A stretch of 64,000 nucleotides of DNA. It comes from an uncultured Methanolobus sp. (GTDB lineage: Archaea; Halobacteriota; Methanosarcinia; Methanosarcinales; Methanosarcinaceae). The notes below the pieces were generated by a model. The model was not told the origin of the DNA. It saw only the letters and a list, made by a program, of their open reading frames with translations, and ran no database searches. The translations under genes and the position numbers were made by a program. The stretch is taken from positions 1,856,001 to 1,920,000 of the forward strand of contig OY776215.1 of assembly GCA_963675495.1 (NCBI GenBank), given 5' to 3'. Positions 43,959 through 63,323 of this stretch are shown piece by piece (position 1 is the stretch's first letter; each line of letters opens with the position of its first letter).

Positions 43959-45059
43959 TTAAATGTTATGTTCTTCTTTCCTGACGGCCGTTACCATTGA
44001 AACATAGAGGAAAATTGCCACAAGGATATAGATCACCATCCATTTCCAGCTTTCCAGTGCTCCTATGCTTTCTATGGAAAGGCGGGTAACCATGTTCATT
44101 GGGGAGTTTGTGAACAGGTAAGAGGCCATGAACAGGAAGATAAGGATAAGTGAATATAGTAACTGTGCGACTCCTCTTTCCCTGAACAGGACTGCAATTA
44201 TGGTACTTGAAAGTACCAGTACAGCAGCGATAACTGTTACAAGTAGTAATATCTGCAGTGAATTTTGTATCGATACCCTGTTCATTGACAGTAGCAACAT
44301 CCAGACGAACGATTGCAGAGGAACTATCAATATTGCCAGTATCACCTTTCCATTAATGATGTCAAGCATGGATGCCGGAGATACAAGGAGCATATCCATG
44401 GTCTTGCGCTCGTATTCCTCAGTGATGAAATCAATTATCAGTCCTCCTGATATGAATGCCGGAGTGAATACAAGCAAGGGTAGGAGTGCTACATAAATAA
44501 ATTCAAAGTAGGTGGAAGATGTTTTGATACCTCTTTCTATTATGTTGAACTCGATAGGTGTGTATCCGGGCAATCTCTGTGTCCTTATGTCCCTCACACT
44601 CTGCTCGTATTTCTCCAGTGGCTCCTTAAGTTGAAGAGAGACAACAGTTGCCTTTATTTCTGATTTCGGCAGGTATATGTCTATATTAAGCAGCTCAGTT
44701 CCGGTAGATGTCCCCCATGGAGCCACAATTATCGCATCTAACTTATGATCATAGAAGTCCGTATATGCCGACTGGAAGTCGTCATAAAGATATGTTCTGA
44801 CATTGCTCTGCTGCAATATCTCGTAAAGTTCATTATCCTGCGTCCCAACCATAGCAATTGAAGTTCCTTCAAGTTCCATATTTCCCAGTGTGCTCGGATC
44901 GTAGAATGATGTAAGTCCGATTACCAGGAAGGTTGCAAACGATGCTATGAAAAGCTGGATTATAATGGCAAGTATGAATGTCTTTTCGCTCATGAGCTCT
45001 TTGAATTCCTTTTTAGCTATGGTCTTCATTTTGCTGCATGAATTTCCATATTTACTCAA
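43959..45059 (-). CDS. ABC-2 type transporter permease
   Basis: IAKKEFKEL N-terminus; ITEEYERKTMDMLLVSP...GK EAA-like loop. Confidence 0.9.
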   Translation of the reverse strand: MSKYGNSCSKMKTIAKKEFKELMSEKTFILAIIIQLFIASFATFLVIGLTSFYDPSTLGNMELEGTSIAMVGTQDNELYEILQQSNVRTYLYDDFQSAYTDFYDHKLDAIIVAPWGTSTGTELLNIDIYLPKSEIKATVVSLQLKEPLEKYEQSVRDIRTQRLPGYTPIEFNIIERGIKTSSTYFEFIYVALLPLLVFTPAFISGGLIIDFITEEYERKTMDMLLVSPASMLDIINGKVILAILIVPLQSFVWMLLLSMNRVSIQNSLQILLLVTVIAAVLVLSSTIIAVLFRERGVAQLLYSLILIFLFMASYLFTNSPMNMVTRLSIESIGALESWKWMVIYILVAIFLYVSMVTAVRKEEHNI

Positions 45060-50840: not shown

Positions 50841-50950
50841 TACCCTTATTTTTTCTAGATCGCTTTACTCTCTCTCTTTTTTAATACAATATTTATATAT
50901 GCTCTCAAATTTATTTCTGCATAATCTGTTTATGGGGTTATTTGATCAAT

Positions 50951-51883
50951 ATGTCAACGTTAATGAAAATTATCTTCCTGGTAGTCTTATTCAGTATTTC
51001 GACCGGGGTTACTGGTGCAATAAATGAATATGCTGAAGAGGAGCAACAGATGCTTGACCTTATCAACGAGGAAAGAGCATTATATGGACTTGAACCATTT
51101 AGCTTCAATGCAGTCTTGAACGATGCTGCAAGTGAGCATAGTAAAGAGATGATCGAAGAAGATTACTTTTCTCATGATTCCTATGATGGAACTTCTTTTT
51201 CAGAAAGACTTAGCAATGCAGGCTATGATATTGTGTACGCAGGTGAGAACATTGCTTTGCATTATCCTCCAGACCTAATCGCAGCTCACGAAGGTCTTAT
51301 GAATTCTCCGGGGCATAGGGCGAATATACTTAACTCTGATTACAATGAGATAGGAATTGGTATCTGGGTTGGGGAGTACTCCGGTTACAGCAATGTTGCT
51401 ATGTACACTCAGGATTTTGGTTGGAGTGATTCAGTTGCAGAAAACCTTCAGATCACTTCTTTTACTCCTTCAGACAATATTGTTGAATCTGAATTATCTC
51501 CAATGACATTTTCAGTTGATACTAATATCGAGTGTGATATTTCATGGTCATTTGACGGTGAGAACGCAAAGGTAGAAAACAACGTACTGTCTTCAGATTG
51601 TGAGTTGATACCTCAGGTGCCAGGTACGTACTATGTAAAAGCAATTGCCTCACAGATGAATCAGGATGTGGTAACTCAATGGACCTGGATTGTCACAGAA
51701 GAAACTGTTCAGATGAAAGGGGATGCTAATAGCGATGGCCTGGTAAATCTTCGTGATCTCAGTGCTTTTGCTCTGGTTTATAATGGCACGAGCACAGAAT
51801 CCAGTAAATGGGCCGACTTCAATGATGATGGCTTGATAAATCTTCGCGATCTCAGTGCTTTTGCGCTGGTATATGAAAGTTAG
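50951..51883 (+). CDS. Secreted CAP/SCP-domain protein with Ig-like and dockerin-like domains
   Basis: Signal peptide; LINEER, YFSH, GENIA, LMNSPGHRANIL, YTQDFG; duplicated D.N.DG..NLRDLSAFALVY. Confidence 0.88.
   Translation: MSTLMKIIFLVVLFSISTGVTGAINEYAEEEQQMLDLINEERALYGLEPFSFNAVLNDAASEHSKEMIEEDYFSHDSYDGTSFSERLSNAGYDIVYAGENIALHYPPDLIAAHEGLMNSPGHRANILNSDYNEIGIGIWVGEYSGYSNVAMYTQDFGWSDSVAENLQITSFTPSDNIVESELSPMTFSVDTNIECDISWSFDGENAKVENNVLSSDCELIPQVPGTYYVKAIASQMNQDVVTQWTWIVTEETVQMKGDANSDGLVNLRDLSAFALVYNGTSTESSKWADFNDDGLINLRDLSAFALVYES
51734..51874 (+). repeat. Two 48-bp imperfect repeats encoding the dockerin halves
   Basis: 51734-51781 and 51827-51874, 93 bp apart. Confidence 0.8.
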
Positions 51884-52021: not shown

Positions 52022-53215
52022 ATGGTAGCAAGATCAAGGAAAATAGCAGTTCAGGACGATAATTCAGAACAAGTTGACAAACATACAGAAGAAAAAGGTA
52101 TACTTCTTTTTGAAACCACAGGCAAAGAGAAAGTATACAGGTATAAAGATTCTATCTTGTTAAGTTTGCCTGAGGGGAGAAATACACTTACAACTTCATG
52201 GTTGAACGGTGGTTACAGGGAAGACATGAGGACAATTTTCAATCATATGGTTCCAAAAAGTAAGCATGCTCCAAAGGATCTTGATGGTGGCAACATTCCT
52301 GCTTACCTGACCATTATTGCAAAAAGGCTGGGTGCAGATCCTGATACATCTTCAGGGCTGTTGACAGCTGCTAATATGGATAATGTTTCAATCGTGACCA
52401 AATCTTTCCGTGGTGTAGAGGTAACTGCTGTCATGACTGCGGGTATTGAGGTTAATGGGGGGCGTGTAGGTGACCCAGCATCTTATTATCAGGAAGATGG
52501 TTCTCATCAGTTCATTCAGGGAACTATTAACACTATGTTGGTAATAGGGGCCAACCTTCCACCATATGCTATGACAAGAGCTGTGGTTACTGCCTCTGAA
52601 GCAAAGACTGCCGCCTTGCAGCAGTTGATGGCACCCAGTCGCTATTCTACTGGAATTGCCACAGGTTCAGGAACAGATATGATAGCTGTTGTCGCAGACT
52701 CTACAAGTTCTCTTTTGTTGACAGATGCAGGTCAGCATTCCAAGCTTGGTGAGCTTATAGGGAAAGTTGTGATCGAATGCACGCTTAAAGCACTTGAGAT
52801 GCAGTCGGATCTGACCCCACTTTCCCAGAGAGATATACTCGTGAGGCTTGAACGTTTTGGAATAGAAGAGACTAGGTACTGGAAAGTTGCATCACATATG
52901 AATGGGGATAATCGCAAAGCGGTTTTTTTAAAAAAATTGCGGGAAATGTCAAAGGATCCTGTACTAGTAGGGGCAACAGGTTCAATATTGCATATTGTAG
53001 ATGAGATATCATGGGGTCTTGTTCCTGAAACTGCTGGCAGGAAGGTAGCTGTTTCTATTATGAAAGGATTGCCTGAAATGCTTGATATAGATGTTCCCAT
53101 TCCTTTTGATGAACTGACTGACGAAAAAGATACAATAATTGACAATTGGATCCGTGTTACTGCCTGGTTGGCGAAAAATTGTGATCCCGAAGATATTTGT
53201 AATTCCAGAAAATGA
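52022..53215 (+). CDS. cbiZ: Adenosylcobinamide amidohydrolase (with C-terminal extension)
   Basis: TSWLNGG, GLLTAANM, TAGIEVNG, GTIN, TASEAKTAAL, ATGSGTD, GQHSKLGELIG. Confidence 0.9.
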   Translation: MVARSRKIAVQDDNSEQVDKHTEEKGILLFETTGKEKVYRYKDSILLSLPEGRNTLTTSWLNGGYREDMRTIFNHMVPKSKHAPKDLDGGNIPAYLTIIAKRLGADPDTSSGLLTAANMDNVSIVTKSFRGVEVTAVMTAGIEVNGGRVGDPASYYQEDGSHQFIQGTINTMLVIGANLPPYAMTRAVVTASEAKTAALQQLMAPSRYSTGIATGSGTDMIAVVADSTSSLLLTDAGQHSKLGELIGKVVIECTLKALEMQSDLTPLSQRDILVRLERFGIEETRYWKVASHMNGDNRKAVFLKKLREMSKDPVLVGATGSILHIVDEISWGLVPETAGRKVAVSIMKGLPEMLDIDVPIPFDELTDEKDTIIDNWIRVTAWLAKNCDPEDICNSRK

Positions 53216-53232: not shown

Positions 53233-54213
53233 ATGAAAGAACTGATGAATTTTTCTCTTTGTGATCATGACATGAAGATGTTCGATTCTAACTGGGGCAT
53301 GATAAGGAATTTCCTTGTCAGACATGACCTGGATGGTCTGGAACTCTTTGTGGATTCGTCTCCGCTTCCAGATGTGCCCGTTGATCTTATAGTGGGTGTA
53401 CATCTTCCTTATTGGATGGGGCGACATAGAGCCTGGGCTGATCCTTCTGCTTTTTCACAGGAAATGGAGGAGTTTGAGATGGCTTACGTTTTTGGTGGTA
53501 ACAGCCGCGAGGAAGTTATTGATAATTTCAGGGGGTCACTTGAGAATGCTGCACATCTGGATGCTTCGTATGCAGTGTTCCATGTTTCTTATGCCGAACT
53601 GGAACAGGTCTTTACACGTTGCTTTGATTGTACCGACCATGATGTGCTTGCAACAACTGCTGAATTCCTGAATGAGGCTGTCTCAATTTATCAGAATGGT
53701 GAACCACCGGTCAGGATATTCTTTGAGAATCTCTGGTGGCCAGGTCTTACATTCCTTGATTCCAAAAATGTTGAATATTTTACAGACCTTCTTGATTTCG
53801 AGAATTGGGCTTTCGTGCTGGATACCGGCCATCTTATGAATGCTACTATGAAGTGTGAAGATGAGGAATGCTCAATAGATGTTGTATTGGATCTACTTTC
53901 CACTCATTCTGAGGATTTTATCAAGCGAATTGAAGGCATGCATTTCCACTGCAGTTTATCAGGTGAGTTCATGCGTAACTCCATGGGAAACGAGGTTCCC
54001 AAGGGATTTGAAAATATGCATTTCAATGACCGTCTTTTATCGGTTATGGAGGTTCTTGAGCAGATGGACCATCATATGCCTTTTACCAGTGAGAAATGTT
54101 CTAAGATAGTTGACTTGGTATCTCCTGATTTTCTGACCCACGAATTTGTTTCAACTGATTTACAATCTCTCGATATGAAAATAGCTACACAGAAACGAGC
54201 ATTGTATGGGTGA
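53233..54213 (+). CDS. Xylose isomerase-like TIM-barrel protein
   Basis: DGLEL, GVHL, YAVFHV, FENLWWPG, LDTGHLMN, DHH.PF, THE metal ligands. Confidence 0.82.
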   Translation: MKELMNFSLCDHDMKMFDSNWGMIRNFLVRHDLDGLELFVDSSPLPDVPVDLIVGVHLPYWMGRHRAWADPSAFSQEMEEFEMAYVFGGNSREEVIDNFRGSLENAAHLDASYAVFHVSYAELEQVFTRCFDCTDHDVLATTAEFLNEAVSIYQNGEPPVRIFFENLWWPGLTFLDSKNVEYFTDLLDFENWAFVLDTGHLMNATMKCEDEECSIDVVLDLLSTHSEDFIKRIEGMHFHCSLSGEFMRNSMGNEVPKGFENMHFNDRLLSVMEVLEQMDHHMPFTSEKCSKIVDLVSPDFLTHEFVSTDLQSLDMKIATQKRALYG

Positions 54214-54278: not shown

Positions 54279-54303
54279 AAATGGTCTGTTAAATGGACCG
54301 TTT
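54279..54303 (+). promoter_or_regulatory. Palindrome upstream of the ArsR-type regulator (possible autoregulatory operator)
   Basis: AAATGGTC-N9-GACCGTTT, overlapping the end of TTTATAAA (54273-54280). Confidence 0.5.
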
Positions 54304-54345
54304 ATGTGGAAAAGTATATATTCAACTCGACATGTACTCTTAATT

Positions 54346-54900
54346 ATGAGTACTCTCGATAACAATGATTCCGAGAATCCAGAAAATATGGACCGATTGA
54401 AACTTTTTAGTGCACTTGGAAGTGAAACCAGACTAAGAATGTTACAACAGCTTACTGAGGGTGAAATGCATATATCTGAACTTGCAAGGATGCTAAGTAT
54501 TTCTGTTCCGGTTGCTGCAAAGCATGCAAATATACTTGAAGCCGCTGACCTCATACAGCGTAAGGTGTATGGTAAAACCCATGTTTTACAATTGAATAAT
54601 AAGAACATTTTCCATGCATTGGATATATTTGCACCTTCCAGAACGGTTGAAGTGGAAAAGGGCGCAACACTTCTGCAAGCACTTAAAAAGGCTGCAGTAG
54701 TGGAAGTGAAGAACGTTCACGGACAGGATAACATTGTTTCCACAAATGGTGAAGAAGGTTTCTTTATATATGAGGTGGATGGTGAATTCTCTGAACAGAA
54801 TGTCAATGACTATAAATTTGACAAAGAAGGAACAGTCATGTGGAAGAAGCTGGAACCAATAAGCATCTTAAAGGTGAATGTCAAATTCAAAAAGGAATGA
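54346..54900 (+). CDS. ArsR-family HTH regulator with C-terminal DUF4430/transcobalamin-like domain
   Basis: LFSALGSETRLRML..MHISELARML..VAAKHANILEAADLI; C-terminal GATLLQAL...IVSTNG..GFFIYEVDGE..VNDY..V.W. Confidence 0.8.
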   Translation: MSTLDNNDSENPENMDRLKLFSALGSETRLRMLQQLTEGEMHISELARMLSISVPVAAKHANILEAADLIQRKVYGKTHVLQLNNKNIFHALDIFAPSRTVEVEKGATLLQALKKAAVVEVKNVHGQDNIVSTNGEEGFFIYEVDGEFSEQNVNDYKFDKEGTVMWKKLEPISILKVNVKFKKE

Positions 54901-55023
54901 TATTTTTTTAGTAGTCAGGAACCATCAAATTCATTATTTTTTTGGTCCCTTATTTTTCTTTTTTTCTTTTGAAATCCATTGTCAGCTCCTTTTTCAGTGG
55001 TGAGATGTCCATCTACATGCTTT

Positions 55024-55072
55024 GGTGAATACTTTCACCCTGCTTGCCAGTGGCTTATATCTGCATCTGGCA
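55024..55072 (+). promoter_or_regulatory. Promoter of the radical SAM-DUF4130-MutS5 operon with two inverted repeats
   Basis: GGTGAA-N4-TTCACC (55024-55039); TGCCAG...CTGGCA (55045-55072) bracketing TTATAT (55055-55060). Confidence 0.5.
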
Positions 55073-55084
55073 TATTGTCTATTA

Positions 55085-56227
55085 ATGATTCCCAGAAATC
55101 CTGTTAATGAGCACCATATGACGCTTATGGAAAGGATGAGACTGCTGTCTGAAGGTACCAAATATGATAGTTGCAACCAGAGTGCAGTCTGCCATGCTTT
55201 CGGACCCGATGGTCGTTGCATACAACTCTACAAGACTTTGATGACAAATTCATGTTCAGGGGAGTGCACATATTGTCCGAACAGGTGTGGCAGGGATTCT
55301 GTGCGTGCATCATTAAGCCCGGAAGAAATCGTAAAGATCACATGGTCTTTCTACCGAAGAAATGCAATAGAAGGCCTGTTCCTGTCCTCTGGTGTGATAG
55401 GGGATTCCGAAAGGACGGCAGAGAAGCAATTAGATGTTGCAAGACTTCTGAGAGGGCAGGGATTTACCGGTTATATCCATATTCGAGTAATGCCAGGTAC
55501 TCCAAAATATTTGCTTGAGGAAATTGCTGATTATGCAAATAAGTTCGGCGTGAATGCAGAAACTACAAACTCACTTAATTATTCGGAAATATGCCCGAAT
55601 TTTGATTATCAAAATGATGTACTCCAGCGTTTACAATGGACACGGGATCTTATTAATAAAAAAAGACGAGAGCCAGGTTCCAGGAGTCGGATAATTGGTG
55701 CCAATGATACTCAGTTTGTGGTTGGAGCCCTGCAGGAATCTGACAGGGAGATAATCGGAACTGTTGAGAAGTTCATGGACAGATACGAATTGAGAAGGCC
55801 TTACTTTATGAGCTTCGACCCGGTTCCATTCACTCCTCTTGAAAACAATGAGCCTTCTCCCCAGTGGAGAGAAGCAAGATTATATCAGACTTCCTATCTT
55901 TTGAAGGACTATGGTATGAGTGCCAATGACCTGGATTCTGTTCTTGACGATAATGGCTTTCTTTGCGATACAGATCCTAAAATGCTCCTTGCATCGTGTC
56001 GTCCTGATATGTTTCCAGTGGACGTAAATTCTGCAAGCAGGAACGAATTGCTCACTGTGCCTGGGATTGGTCCTGTGGGGGCCAACAGGATAATTCAGTC
56101 AAGGCCTATAGCATCGGAAAAGGAACTTGCGCGCATGGGTGTTGTTCTTGGTCGTGCACGTCCGTTCATTGAAATAAACGGGAAAAAACAGACAAACTTA
56201 TTCTCGTTTACGGGGGTGGGTGCATGA
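55085..56227 (+). CDS. Putative DNA modification/repair radical SAM protein with HhH (TIGR03916-like)
   Basis: TKYD..C, CHAFGPDGRC, CxxxCxxC (CSGECTYC), IEGLFLSSGV, GYIH, REARLYQ, FPVDVN.AS..ELL.VPGIG. Confidence 0.9.
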   Translation: MIPRNPVNEHHMTLMERMRLLSEGTKYDSCNQSAVCHAFGPDGRCIQLYKTLMTNSCSGECTYCPNRCGRDSVRASLSPEEIVKITWSFYRRNAIEGLFLSSGVIGDSERTAEKQLDVARLLRGQGFTGYIHIRVMPGTPKYLLEEIADYANKFGVNAETTNSLNYSEICPNFDYQNDVLQRLQWTRDLINKKRREPGSRSRIIGANDTQFVVGALQESDREIIGTVEKFMDRYELRRPYFMSFDPVPFTPLENNEPSPQWREARLYQTSYLLKDYGMSANDLDSVLDDNGFLCDTDPKMLLASCRPDMFPVDVNSASRNELLTVPGIGPVGANRIIQSRPIASEKELARMGVVLGRARPFIEINGKKQTNLFSFTGVGA

Positions 56228-57069
56228 TAGTGGCCTTCAGGGAAAATGTAGAAGGTGTTTTGCTTGCCTGTGATGCGCTCTTAGGTAATCCGGATTGTGA
56301 TCTCATTTCCGCAAAGGACAGAGATGGGCTGAAACAAAAGATGGAGTTTACAGGAGTTGATGAAGTGAAAACTCTGGGATTCAGATGTATGGTAGATACA
56401 ACAAAGCTTGTATGCAACATATTTGGAAAACGGGGTTCAAGAATGTTTCAGCGTGATCCGGATGTTGAAGGGTACATAGCAATGGTATTGAGACATCGAA
56501 GCTCGCGACCGATCGAACTGGTACATTTTCTGTGTTCTTGTGAGGGGAATGCCGAACTTCTTTATTCAGGTAAGAGCAGCACGGGTAAAAAATATTACAA
56601 TTACATGCGGGATGTAAGTCGTTCATATCATCGTTTGTGCATGTTTGCACGGCCTGCTTTTGTTAATGGGGTGTTGTCTGTCAAAATAGAGTCATCACAT
56701 CAGATAGGAGATCTCTTCTGTCGCTGGCTTTCAAGGAAAAACCCCGACCTTCCTGTTTCGGTAATAGAGGGGGACATTGCCTGGATAGGAAATGGCGCTC
56801 ATGTAGGCCTTGAACACTTCACAAAGGTGCCTTCTTCATTGGCAGGTAGCCTTGAGTTTACCAATGAACGTGATGAGGTTGATGATCTGTGGGATATGTA
56901 CTACGATTCTCAGATGATTCACAACCGGAGAAATAAAAGCCATGCCAAGCAGCTGCAACCAAAGGCTTCTGCATCCATGAGCAAGATGTCGGAAAGGGAC
57001 CGGTACAAGGTTGAAAAAGGTATTGCGAACTGCACCCTGGATTCTTTTGCGTCTGAGTTGGAGGTATAA
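56224..57069 (+). CDS. DUF4130 / TIGR03915-like DNA metabolism protein
   Basis: DVSRSYHRLCMFAR, IESSHQI, DDLWDMYYDSQMIHNRRN; ATGA overlap with the radical SAM gene. Confidence 0.8.
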   Translation: MIVAFRENVEGVLLACDALLGNPDCDLISAKDRDGLKQKMEFTGVDEVKTLGFRCMVDTTKLVCNIFGKRGSRMFQRDPDVEGYIAMVLRHRSSRPIELVHFLCSCEGNAELLYSGKSSTGKKYYNYMRDVSRSYHRLCMFARPAFVNGVLSVKIESSHQIGDLFCRWLSRKNPDLPVSVIEGDIAWIGNGAHVGLEHFTKVPSSLAGSLEFTNERDEVDDLWDMYYDSQMIHNRRNKSHAKQLQPKASASMSKMSERDRYKVEKGIANCTLDSFASELEV

Positions 57070-59183
57070 TGTTAGCTGATGTCAGGACTTTACAGGATAT
57101 TCCTCGCATAGGGGACAAAATGTCGAAACGTTTTGTAGAGCATTTCGGTAGTGAAAATCAGGCACTTGACGTTATACTTGCCGGTGATATCGCCAGTATT
57201 TCCGAGGTAGAGGGTATTGGTCAACGTTATGCGATCTCTCTTATACAGGATGTAGCTTCCAGAGTTGAAGGAGTTAATGTCTCTGATTTTTTGAGAACCA
57301 AGGAGGCAATGGATGTCTATGAAAAATTGCTTGACCTAGTAAAGGAATTTGCTCATACCCGATATTCCAAAGATAAACTACATGTTTTTTTCCCGTATCC
57401 TTCTAGCAAGATCCAAAAGATAATGCAGGTCCGTGAATCAGTTTCGTATTACATGGAAACTGCCAATCTGCTTGAGGGGGATGGGACTATTGTTGACTTG
57501 TTGTCAAAAGCCACACAGTTAAATTTTAAACACCAGTGCCCCAAGATTCGCGACAGGGTTATCATAACATCTGACCATGATAGTTACGAGTATGCAAGAA
57601 AACGGTTTGCAGGATTGGTTGATGTAAACTTTGCACGTTCCCTTTCTGAATTCATAGATGTTTCAAGGGGTTTCTCTCAGGTTATTGCTGTGGGAGATGA
57701 TTACCTGTCATTTGATCTTCCAGAAGATGTGGACCCTGAATTCTATTCTGACTTACAGGAAATAGATGATTTCAAGGTTATACCTGAAAAAGAAATAGTG
57801 GCATTTTCCCGCAATCTCAAATCGATAGAATCTTCTATTAAAGTGATAAGGTTGCTCCGTTCCAGGGGAATTAGTTTCTTTGACAGCATGGATGATGATA
57901 AACTTGAGTTGCTTGCTTCTACATTGGCTCTTATAGACGAGAGTGGTGATATTGTCTATGGGACTGATGAGGAAGTGGACCGAATTTCGGATGCAAAAGA
58001 CAAGCTTAGTTCTACTGTTACAGAAACTGTACGTATTGTAAATGATGGTCTGAACTCCTGTCTGGAAAATAGTCAGATGACACTCAGTGGACAGGATATG
58101 CTGAAAGTGATGAATGGTTCCATTGAGCTGAAAGAGATACTTGGAAAGAAGCTGCACAAAAGTTATTACTCCATTGTTAAAGAAGGTGCGGACAGAATAT
58201 GCAATGAACTTCAGCTTGAGAAAAAGGAAAGATTGATGGTCGATTCCTTTTTCCCGGAAGAGATTATGCATCCTGTGGAAGCAAATGTTGATAATCTTAA
58301 TGCTTTGAAACAGCACCTGAATAAAAAGGCCCTGAAAAGAAAATTCGATCATAAGCGTGAAGTCTCACGCATATTGTCTTCCTACAAAACAATTGTTCGG
58401 GAAATGGTTCGCGAAGTACTTGATTTTGATGTGGGATTTGCAATCGGTTCTTTTGCTCTTGCATATGATCTTGTTATGCCTACAATTATAGATGGTACAG
58501 GCATTGGTTTTAATGGTGGAAGGAACCTGTTTTTGCTTTCCAGACATGGTGATGTGGTACCAATTGACTATTCAGTGGGTGAGAACGGTTTCAGTCCTAA
58601 AAGTGAGGCCAGCAGGGTCGTACTTTTGAGTGGCGTCAATTCAGGAGGTAAAACCTCCCTTCTGGAACTTCTTGCCCAGAGCAGTATCCTTGCCCAGATG
58701 GGATTTCCTGTTCCTGCACAGCATATGGAACTATCTCTTACTGAGTCGATGTACTACTTTGCTAAATCAAAAGGTACATTAGATGCAGGTGCATTTGAAA
58801 CGACCCTTACTGAGTTCTCTGTGGTAGCTGATGATTCTGCAAAATTTGTATTGGCAGATGAGCTTGAATCCATCACAGAGCCTGGAGCTTCTGCAAAGAT
58901 CATGGCTGGAATACTTGAAGTTTTAACCGAGAATGAAAGCACTATGTCTATATTTGTGTCACATCTTTCAGAGCAGATAGTGGAGAATACTACCTGTGAT
59001 ATCAGGGTTGATGGGATAGAGGCAAGCGGGCTGGATGCCGAGCTTAATTTAATAGTTGACAGGAGTCCCCGTTATAATTATGTTGCAAAAAGCACCCCTG
59101 AACTGATTGTAGAGAGGCTATCAAAAAAGACAGGCGGAAAAGAACAGGCTTTCTATGATAAATTAAGGAGTAAGTTTCAGTAG
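57069..59183 (+). CDS. mutS5: Archaeal MutS5 (MutS2-like) ATPase with N-terminal HhH
   Basis: HhH LQDIPRIG / SEVEGIG; SGVNSGGKT; GTLDAGAFETTL; LADELESITEPGA; FVSHL; no mismatch-binding or Smr domain; TAATG overlap with the DUF4130 gene. Confidence 0.88.
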   Translation: MLADVRTLQDIPRIGDKMSKRFVEHFGSENQALDVILAGDIASISEVEGIGQRYAISLIQDVASRVEGVNVSDFLRTKEAMDVYEKLLDLVKEFAHTRYSKDKLHVFFPYPSSKIQKIMQVRESVSYYMETANLLEGDGTIVDLLSKATQLNFKHQCPKIRDRVIITSDHDSYEYARKRFAGLVDVNFARSLSEFIDVSRGFSQVIAVGDDYLSFDLPEDVDPEFYSDLQEIDDFKVIPEKEIVAFSRNLKSIESSIKVIRLLRSRGISFFDSMDDDKLELLASTLALIDESGDIVYGTDEEVDRISDAKDKLSSTVTETVRIVNDGLNSCLENSQMTLSGQDMLKVMNGSIELKEILGKKLHKSYYSIVKEGADRICNELQLEKKERLMVDSFFPEEIMHPVEANVDNLNALKQHLNKKALKRKFDHKREVSRILSSYKTIVREMVREVLDFDVGFAIGSFALAYDLVMPTIIDGTGIGFNGGRNLFLLSRHGDVVPIDYSVGENGFSPKSEASRVVLLSGVNSGGKTSLLELLAQSSILAQMGFPVPAQHMELSLTESMYYFAKSKGTLDAGAFETTLTEFSVVADDSAKFVLADELESITEPGASAKIMAGILEVLTENESTMSIFVSHLSEQIVENTTCDIRVDGIEASGLDAELNLIVDRSPRYNYVAKSTPELIVERLSKKTGGKEQAFYDKLRSKFQ

Positions 59184-63250: not shown

Positions 63251-63323
63251 GTCCGAATAGTGTAGAGGCCTATCATGGAGCCCTGTCGAGGCTCCGACCC
63301 GGGTTCGAATCCCGGTTCGGGCG
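63251..63323 (+). tRNA. tRNA-Asp(GTC)
   Basis: Acceptor GTCCGAA/TTCGGGC; anticodon arm GAGCC-CTGTCGA-GGCTC; T-arm CCGGG-TTCGAAT-CCCGG. Confidence 0.96.

Follow-up and report, generated by a model that had tools for sequence, protein, structure and literature searches.

The 64,000-nucleotide stretch of an uncultured Methanolobus genome considered here (the window) carries, on the forward strand at 54346..54900 (stop codon included), a gene for a putative transcription regulator of 184 amino acids, whose open reading frame, translation and Pfam matches indicate an ArsR-type winged helix-turn-helix (wHTH) followed by a DUF4430/SLBB domain. Upstream of it, and like all features given here on the same strand, lie cbiZ (52022..53215), encoding an adenosylcobinamide amidohydrolase (PF01955, E 1.6e-58), and, directly adjoining the regulator, a gene for an AP_endonuc_2 TIM barrel (53233..54213, Pfam E 1.4e-8), an arrangement that a first-pass annotation made from the letters alone had correctly recognized. 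The gap between cbiZ and the TIM-barrel gene is 17 nt, and the two probably form one operon. A TATA-like box (AAAAGTATATATT, 54310..54322, core at 54315-54321) can be read about 31 nt before the regulator ATG, at a position that is conserved in orthologous promoters. As a second in-frame ATG at 54304 precedes this box, 54346 is the likely start, and the short distance from the box to that ATG indicates that the regulator mRNA is probably leaderless or nearly so. The stop codon is followed by a T-rich tract (54901..54980), by its letters a probable archaeal oligo-T terminator, given which the regulator gene is probably monocistronic and set apart from the downstream radical-SAM gene. Beyond this tract, Pfam matches identify three genes, whose products are of the radical-SAM/HhH, DUF4130 and MutS-like kinds. 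The regulator is present in a single copy in the window's genome, with up to seven matches in some Methanolobus genomes.

Domain architecture and fold of the regulator

Residues 26-71 (54421..54558) match HTH_5/ArsR (PF01022, E 4.1e-8, 33.4 bits against a cut-off of 22) and HTH_20 (E 9.3e-7), and the assignment of this region to the ArsR/SmtB winged helices is supported by structural matches of its model and by its invariant residues. A word-indexed search yielded 107 relatives, whose source names include Methanolobus, Methanomethylovorans, Methanococcoides, Methanohalophilus, Methanohalobium and ANME-1/Methanophagales; 39 of them were aligned, and HTH_5 is matched by all 39. Methanosarcina is also among the genera named for the family. 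Across the family the recognition helix (ISVPVAAKH) hardly varies, with S53, V56 and H60 fully conserved, and H42, H60 and H79 are invariant in the 39 aligned sequences. The HTH_metalloreg subfamily of NCBIfam scores 52.8 bits, slightly under its cut-off of 55, and none of the metal-sensor equivalogs in NCBIfam gave a match over cut-off. Since the translated protein is free of cysteine, it has no Cys-based alpha3 or alpha3N metal/metalloid site, a feature that defines the metal-sensing subgroups only and not the fold family. The first-pass annotation was thus right on both the N-terminal ArsR helix-turn-helix and the lack of an obvious cysteine metal site.

The C-terminal part, approximately residues 97-172 (54634..54861), is presumed to bind the ligand and resembles the beta-grasp domains of transcobalamin and DUF4430 proteins. 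Its invariant residues in the 39-sequence alignment are G106, L113, G138, Y142, E143, G146 and K167. The window protein matches DUF4430 (PF14478) weakly (E 1.3e-3, 19.6 bits), its residues 106-167 covering positions 1-69 of the 72 in the profile, but for the family as a whole the match is solid, since 34 of the 39 aligned relatives reach E <= 0.01, the best 1.7e-8. When the full-length AlphaFold model (predicted local distance difference test, pLDDT, 82.8) was compared by Foldseek, only the ArsR half found partners, with matches to SrnR, CzrA, NolR, CadC and SmtB at E down to 1.1e-5; the sequence profile likewise matched ArsR-family PDB chains (E 5.6e-11). Because the whole-protein model matched ArsR structures only, the C-domain was folded alone, with 31 sequences (AlphaFold2, pLDDT 78.6). 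In a Foldseek search of the PDB with this model, the rows listed at ranks 1-19 were all transcobalamin, intrinsic factor, haptocorrin or 3u7z, a DUF4430 protein (best E 4.6e-3, TMq 0.56-0.65, root-mean-square deviation about 1.9 A over 68-76 columns), the next row having E 1.6; no match reached E <= 0.001. VIA-align, which is independent of Foldseek, placed haptocorrin, transcobalamin, intrinsic factor and 3u7z in its five top rows among 48,161 chains, at Z 9.4-10.1 with 75-76 residues aligned and a root-mean-square deviation of 2.0-2.4 A, and after a gap came MoaD, SAMP1, CysO and ThiS at Z <= 6.1. The ThiS/MoaD-like fold, which the first-pass annotation had named as the outcome that would speak against its reading, thus ranks well below the B12 carriers.

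The transcobalamin/DUF4430-like nature of the C-domain, which that annotation had read from a motif, therefore stands at the level of the fold, whereas the register of that motif is uncertain. The annotation had placed the segment GFFIYEVDG on the W.Y.VNG motif; MAFFT and hhalign instead align it with the F.sIdG motif that canonical DUF4430 repeats carry, and with these two placements at odds the residue-level register of the C-domain motif is not fixed. With the fold taken from the models, the regulator is best described as an ArsR wHTH joined to a transcobalamin-beta/DUF4430-like domain, a predicted one-component factor of the ArsR-SLBB type.

Distribution and linkage to corrinoid and cobalt genes

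A profile of the family, applied to 401 sampled genomes of the phylum with a match defined as E <= 1e-10, gave a match in 121 of them. Matches are nearly universal in the window's own family (f1, 49/52 genomes) and in f13 (51/54), and occur in f7 (4/4), f28 (2/3), f18 (1/4) and f30 (1/3). Within f6 a full-length regulator was found in three genomes of one genus (g82) only, the other six matches in that family being confined to the helix-turn-helix (E ~1e-11), and no match was found in f4 (0/12), f5 (0/14), f8 (0/24), f11 (0/25), f12 (0/15) or f15 (0/28). In two other Methanolobus genomes (G176:C1:349721-351013 and G188:C1:1338310-1339648) a short relative consisting of the helix-turn-helix without the C-domain (E 1e-21 to 1e-22) lies just upstream of a second cbiZ.

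The surroundings of the regulator were examined at 120 loci, taken in sets of 80 and 40, by clustering the open reading frames and running cluster representatives through Pfam. By the author's tally, some 12 out of roughly 22 classes of arrangement have corrinoid or cobalt genes (btuFCD, cbiZ, cbiMNQO, cobN or surface DUF4430 genes) within 5 kb, so that the co-localization of orthologues named as a check by the first-pass annotation is found. The order cbiZ-TIM-regulator of the window recurs in L001-L031. In L070, L076 and L080 the regulator is followed on the same strand by btuF-btuC-btuD-cbiZ, L051 has btuFCD-cbiZ-regulator with cbiM further upstream in the locus, and in L061 and L118 btuDCF is divergent from a TIM-regulator pair. 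The regulator adjoins cbiM-PDGLE-cbiO-cbiQ in f7 (L102-L105), follows btuF-ABC-x in f28 (L107), and in f6 (L109-L111) is adjoined by btuF, an 802-aa toroid+DUF4430 protein and a propeller+DUF4430 protein. In Methanosarcina and relatives (L060, L062, L078, L114-L117; partially in L064 and L075) a cobN-DUF2149-exbB-DUF2162 cluster is divergent from it. Because the arrangements differ between lineages, this linkage cannot be a single inherited block. One of these loci, L075, is a 2.8-kb contig labelled as a metagenome-assembled genome of a Clostridiaceae bacterium, with the Methanosarcina-type ExbB-DUF2162-regulator order and the same palindrome (see below) at the same position; the contig is probably archaeal and mis-binned.

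In f1 an AP_endonuc_2 TIM barrel of 326 or 241 aa is very frequently encoded directly upstream of the regulator. The window's TIM barrel has CbiR as its sole NCBIfam match at E <= 0.001 (E 1.4e-4, 21.5 bits), and CbiR is also the best NCBIfam match of the 241-aa form found at the same position in other genera (for example L042:7188-7910; E 5.4e-14, 52.3 bits); both scores fall far short of the cut-off of 105, and the two forms show no likeness by BLASTP. CbiR of Akkermansia is an enzyme from the superfamily of AP endonuclease 2 and cleaves cobamides hydrolytically at the phosphoribosyl bond (10.1101/2020.09.02.280537). The upstream TIM barrel may thus be an archaeal cobamide-remodelling enzyme, a lead from sequence likeness and not an assignment to the family.

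At 50942-51883 of the window, between a MATE transporter gene and cbiZ, is a gene for a CAP-domain protein with a dockerin repeat; of 32 orthologous loci that share this gene order, L021 is the only one with a gene of comparable length (309 aa) there, and the gene looks like a recent insertion. The region 55022-57069 encodes a radical-SAM/HhH protein (TIGR03916, 286 bits, cut-off 343) paired with a DUF4130/TIGR03915 protein, a pair annotated in bacteria as putative DNA modification/repair and here conserved in an archaeal family beside a MutS-like gene. For the 704-aa product of the latter (57069-59183), NCBIfam ranks KamC first (E 2e-24, 86 bits against a cut-off of 300) and MutS2 behind it. 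KamC is the ATPase that reactivates lysine 5,6-aminomutase, a B12-dependent enzyme, and the match may be a further corrinoid link or, equally, reflect just the shared MutS ATPase domain. A tRNA gene at 63251-63323 is the sole Rfam match at gathering score in the window.

Candidate operator and predicted targets

As the recognition helix is nearly invariant, the operator should be common to the family. Gibbs sampling of 49 de-replicated upstream regions gave an information content of 12.0 at width 16, compared with 9.4-9.6 for shuffles, and most of this signal came from the conserved first codons (MSxLDNK) instead of an operator, after which only non-coding sites from distant lineages were carried forward. 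Sites of this kind upstream of the regulator hinted at a palindrome (L109 and L110 carry TTAACC-N4-GGTTAA), and the resulting candidate operator is a 16-bp palindrome, TTAYC-N6-GRTAA, with TTACCCATATGGGTAA as the consensus of 16 training sites. The direct repeat just upstream of the regulator's TATA box (ATGGTCTGTTAA / ATGGACCGTTTA, 54281..54304), seen in a by-eye alignment of orthologous upstream regions and conserved in close Methanolobus relatives, is unlike this family-wide palindrome; it was rejected as an operator, being unique in the genome at <=1 mismatch, with 2-mismatch matches that looked random. In many Methanosarcinaceae loci (e.g., L070, L076, L080) the first six codons of the regulator (ATGAScCAGaTAGATAA, MSQxDN) are conserved at the nucleotide level and are palindrome-like, comparable to L109 GTTAACCAGATGGTTA. 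Possibly an operator lies here, across the start of a leaderless transcript, a reading confounded with conservation of the protein.

The relaxed pattern TWAYC-N6-GRTWA has 33 matches in the 1.53 Mb of the 120 loci. Among the 29 matches listed (L032-L121), 12 are intergenic, and 11 of these 12 lie beside the regulator or linked genes (DUF2162, btuF, cbiM): five Methanosarcina-type loci have one 60 nt ahead of DUF2162, L061 and L118 have one separating btuF from TIM-regulator, L051 has one before cbiM, and L084, L086 and L067 have one before the regulator. A position weight matrix (PWM) was built from the 16 regulator-adjacent sites and applied to independent sets of regions at a threshold of >= 11. 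Upstream of cbiM it found sites in 10/27 regions of f1 (nine at -90 to -151, one at -321), 4/17 of f13 and f7 (all >= 15) and 1/4 of the regulator-bearing genus of f6, and none in 20 regions of regulator-free families (maximum 9.8) or in 16 of regulator-free genomes of f6 (maximum 5.5); three of the 30 f1 cbiM loci had been excluded as they did not match the type-1 cbiM query. The second cbiM paralogue of f1 gave 0/3, and random upstream regions of the window's genome 6/400. Altogether, a site is present in 15 of 48 cbiM upstream regions where the genome bears the regulator and in 0 of 36 where it does not, a contrast that is weakened by the non-independence of counts from related genomes and by the higher G+C content of some control regions. 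It is no more than suggestive of a tie between the palindrome and the regulator.

In the window's genome the stricter pattern TTAYC-N6-GRTAA has 20 exact matches, two of them fully intergenic, and one of these two lies 136 nt before cbiM. The PWM at >= 11.5 finds 63 matches genome-wide, 13 of them intergenic with a gene start within 350 nt, and two of the 13 belong to cobalt or corrinoid operons. At the cbiM-cbiQ-cbiO promoter, around G000 1998349-1998408, an exact site and a site with one mismatch, 44 nt apart, flank the TATA box. The other operon lies at a second corrinoid locus (G000:C1:43500-51500, L236) and comprises cbiZ2, btuF, btuC, btuD and the gene of a PGF-CTERM surface protein that is 530 aa long and has DUF4430 three times over; a PQQ-like propeller protein is encoded next in the locus. 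The site of this operon (G000 44269-44284), scoring 12.6, lies 101 nt before it and just past a TATA-like box. Repressor sites in the TATA/start region are an established pattern in archaea, and the positions of both candidate sites fit repression. Two of the other intergenic sites precede vitamin genes, one at G000:C1:2603513 (PWM 14.2) 48 nt before Thi4 thiazole synthase and one at G000:C1:1975446 (PWM 12.8) 123 nt before a BioY-ECF transporter operon; they could be chance or cross-talk among vitamin genes. The three top intergenic PWM matches (16.9, 16.3 and 14.9, at G000:C1:187401, 748083 and 153848) lie in gene-poor stretches with no open reading frame starting within 350 nt.

The regulon, if real, varies by genus. 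In Methanosarcina the counterpart of the DUF2162-exbB-DUF2149-cobN cluster is divergent from the regulator and has the palindrome. In the window's genome the region G000:C1:961311-991352 holds DUF2162, ExbB-like and DUF2149 genes followed by very large open reading frames (1,358 to 2,115 aa), four of them with CobN/Mg-chelatase domains. A search for the cobalamin riboswitch RF00174 found none in the window's complete genome, nor in four archaeal control genomes.

Proposed role, alternatives and known systems

The reading to which these observations point, given a probability of roughly 55%, is that the regulator is an ArsR-SLBB repressor which responds to corrinoids and acts on the uptake of cobalt and corrinoids, in a riboswitch-like role. 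The ArsR-type winged helix, presumably as a dimer, would bind TTAYC-N6-GRTAA palindromes that overlap the TATA/start regions of the promoters for cobalt uptake (cbiM-cbiQ-cbiO) and for corrinoid uptake and salvage (cbiZ2-btuF-btuC-btuD with the surface protein of three DUF4430 repeats). The transcobalamin-beta-like C-domain would bind a corrinoid, either a cobamide or cobinamide, which would most likely act as a co-repressor, so that uptake genes would be turned off in the replete cell. A lone SLBB domain is plausible as a sensor, because the isolated beta domain of transcobalamin binds cobalamin and cobinamide by itself (PMC5599065). A wider version of this proposal is tentative and appreciably less probable. 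It holds that in Methanosarcinaceae, in ANME-type archaea and in some few further lineages B12 feedback is exerted through a protein circuit, in which a corrinoid-loaded repressor sits on paired palindromes flanking the TATA box of operons for cobalt and corrinoid uptake, the regulon has been rewired between genera (cbiMNQO/btuFCD in Methanolobus, DUF2162-exbB-DUF2149-cobN in Methanosarcina), and the TIM barrel is a CbiR-type enzyme, together forming a sense-and-remodel module that chooses which cobamides are kept.

A number of observations weigh against the proposed repressor. The DUF4430 score of the window protein falls under the Pfam cut-off of 23.8; the C-domain profile gave only chance matches to PDB sequences (E 0.36-0.52) and did not reach transcobalamin; and hhalign of the C-domain alignment with five canonical DUF4430 repeats returned a probability of 0.23 over 15 columns. 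The canonical Trp of those repeats is not evident in the regulator family, and, because the register from MAFFT and hhalign is uncertain, the B12-contact residues cannot be mapped. As to the linkage, the usual f13 neighbour is an ADP-ribosylglycohydrolase gene preceding the regulator, with no corrinoid gene; other classes without corrinoid or cobalt genes are the order argJ-PFK-PFK-TIM-regulator of the Methanococcoides/Methanohalophilus type, paralogues that follow type IV pilus genes and a few singletons. As to the operator, 17 of 27 f1 and 13 of 17 f13/f7 cbiM promoters score below 11; 11 of the 13 intergenic sites of the window's genome precede unrelated genes (among them Thi4, BioY-ECF, topoisomerase, integrase and ribosomal protein L1); and any lineage-specific factor would give the same co-occurrence of palindrome and regulator. 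Furthermore, no site is present at the regulator's own promoter (best PWM -1.3), at those of the adjacent cbiZ (3.5) and TIM-barrel gene (0.4), or at the DUF2162-exbB-DUF2149-4xcobN cluster of the window's genome. None of the 30 f1 cbiZ loci has a site >= 11.5 in the approximately 1,350 nt scanned upstream, or one >= 10.5 within approximately 1,000 nt, two sites of 10.6 lying 1,063 and 1,151 nt upstream. The tie of the regulator to the adjacent cbiZ is therefore one of position only. Thus, the suggestion of the first-pass annotation that a B12 sensor does the work of the riboswitch is favoured by the architecture, the fold, the linkage, the candidate operator at uptake promoters and the lack of RF00174, while the neighbouring cbiZ from which that suggestion started has no candidate operator.

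It is unlikely, yet the most probable of the alternatives, that the protein is a one-component regulator of the same kind with another ligand for its C-domain, such as F430 or a precursor (sirohydrochlorin), heme or something unrelated. By source names the regulator family belongs mainly to Methanosarcinaceae and ANME-type archaea, and these archaea make F430. Other F430-making families of the phylum lack the regulator gene, however, and the linked and motif-bearing genes are cbiMNQO, btuFCD, cbiZ, a CbiR-like gene and surface DUF4430 proteins; the second cbiM paralogue, which at a guess might serve nickel, has no site (0/3). The unmapped B12-contact residues are consistent with such a ligand, and the authors and a reviewer of the paper that defined the SLBB superfamily cautioned that SLBB domains fused to a helix-turn-helix may bind ligands other than B12 (PMC1796856). 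Heme has also been proposed, in a preprint, for a bacterial transcobalamin-like pair (10.1101/864751).

A cobalt-ion sensor is less probable again. Here ArsR-domain histidines would hold Co(II), in the manner of the Ni/Co sensors among ArsR/SmtB proteins, and dimerisation or stability would be the only task of the C-domain. The invariant H42, H60 and H79, the PDB relatives that include the metal sensors CzrA, NmtR and SmtB, and the cobalt transporter cbiMNQO as the best-supported target could all be accommodated by this idea; the missing cysteines, the lack of any metal-sensor equivalog over cut-off, and a C-domain with its own invariant residues and carrier-like fold could not as easily, and genes for corrinoid transport and remodelling are linked as often as those for cobalt. 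ArsR/SmtB metal sensors normally release DNA when they bind metal. The logic would thus be the wrong one, because uptake would be turned on when cobalt is plentiful. The least probable of these explanations makes the regulator the controller of the downstream radical-SAM/DUF4130/MutS-like cluster, a module of DNA-repair type, with the nearness of cbiZ being inherited gene order. The radical-SAM gene is indeed the commonest neighbour in the window's own family (53/81 loci, followed by DUF4130 with 51, the MutS-like gene with 49 and CbiZ with 37), but this block is confined to f1 and missing in f6, f7, f13, f28 and Methanosarcina; paralogues and distant orthologues adjoin corrinoid or cobalt genes in varied arrangements instead. 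The terminator-like T-rich tract separates the regulator from the radical-SAM gene, and among the matches listed none of the 16-bp pattern falls in the spacer between them.

Corrinoid enzymes are heavily relied on by methylotrophic methanogens and by archaea that oxidise methane. If the corrinoid-responsive repressor is real, it would provide a protein-based part for a B12 biosensor and would suggest a cobalamin-handling role for DUF2162, DUF2149 and the CbiR-like TIM barrels.

The idea of a corrinoid sensor is not new; a 2007 paper had already put it forward as a prediction. In that paper Burroughs, Balaji, Iyer and Aravind (Biol Direct 2:4, PMC1796856) defined the SLBB superfamily and described intracellular transcobalamin-like SLBB domains fused to an ArsR-like wHTH, with a Methanosarcina example, and to an AraC-like helix-turn-helix; they predicted the ArsR-SLBB fusions to be one-component factors for B12, its precursors or another soluble ligand, a claim about B12 that a reviewer asked them to soften. 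These factors resemble the window protein in architecture (intracellular, with a single SLBB domain), in their euryarchaeal hosts and in their predicted role. The 2007 paper offers no operator, regulon or experiment, and the literature searched yielded no later experimental or regulon work on ArsR-SLBB factors and no account of how archaea regulate B12 and cobalt acquisition. What is new here is the gene linkage across lineages, the candidate operator, the predicted targets and the CbiR-like neighbour, which make the 2007 prediction directly testable. The M. mazei ArsR regulators MM2441 and MM2446 (PMC3510493) were considered as members of the family and set aside, judging by their description only, since the setting given for them, as second gene in a bicistron with MM2440, is unlike that of the Methanosarcina loci found here.

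The beta domains of transcobalamin, intrinsic factor and haptocorrin and the bacterial DUF4430 protein (5no0, 5np4, 2bb6, 2pmv, 4kkj, 3u7z) share the fold of the C-domain model, whereas the C-domain has only 11-22% sequence identity to them, lacks an alpha-toroid partner, is intracellular and is fused to a DNA-binding domain. The job proposed for the regulator is that of the cobalamin riboswitch, namely, feedback control of transporters of the cbiMNQO/btuFCD type, and btuB and btuCDF are strongly regulated by B12 according to a review (PMC8123684). Unlike the riboswitch, the window regulator is a protein and would act at transcription initiation. CarH and LitR are B12-dependent repressors that join a MerR helix-turn-helix to a B12-binding domain, CarH using adenosylcobalamin as a light sensor and not as a nutrient signal. 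They are likewise protein factors with a cobalamin ligand, as proposed for the window regulator, but both their DNA-binding and their B12-binding folds differ, and no Pfam domain of the CarH/LitR type was found in the window protein. A parallel in logic is RbkR, an archaeal one-component protein in which a helix-turn-helix is joined to a ligand domain and which stands in place of a bacterial vitamin riboswitch, as is proposed here. ThiR is an archaeal vitamin regulator of the same logic. The ligand domains of RbkR and ThiR are enzyme-like (kinase-like) and unrelated to the beta-grasp carrier domain of the window regulator.

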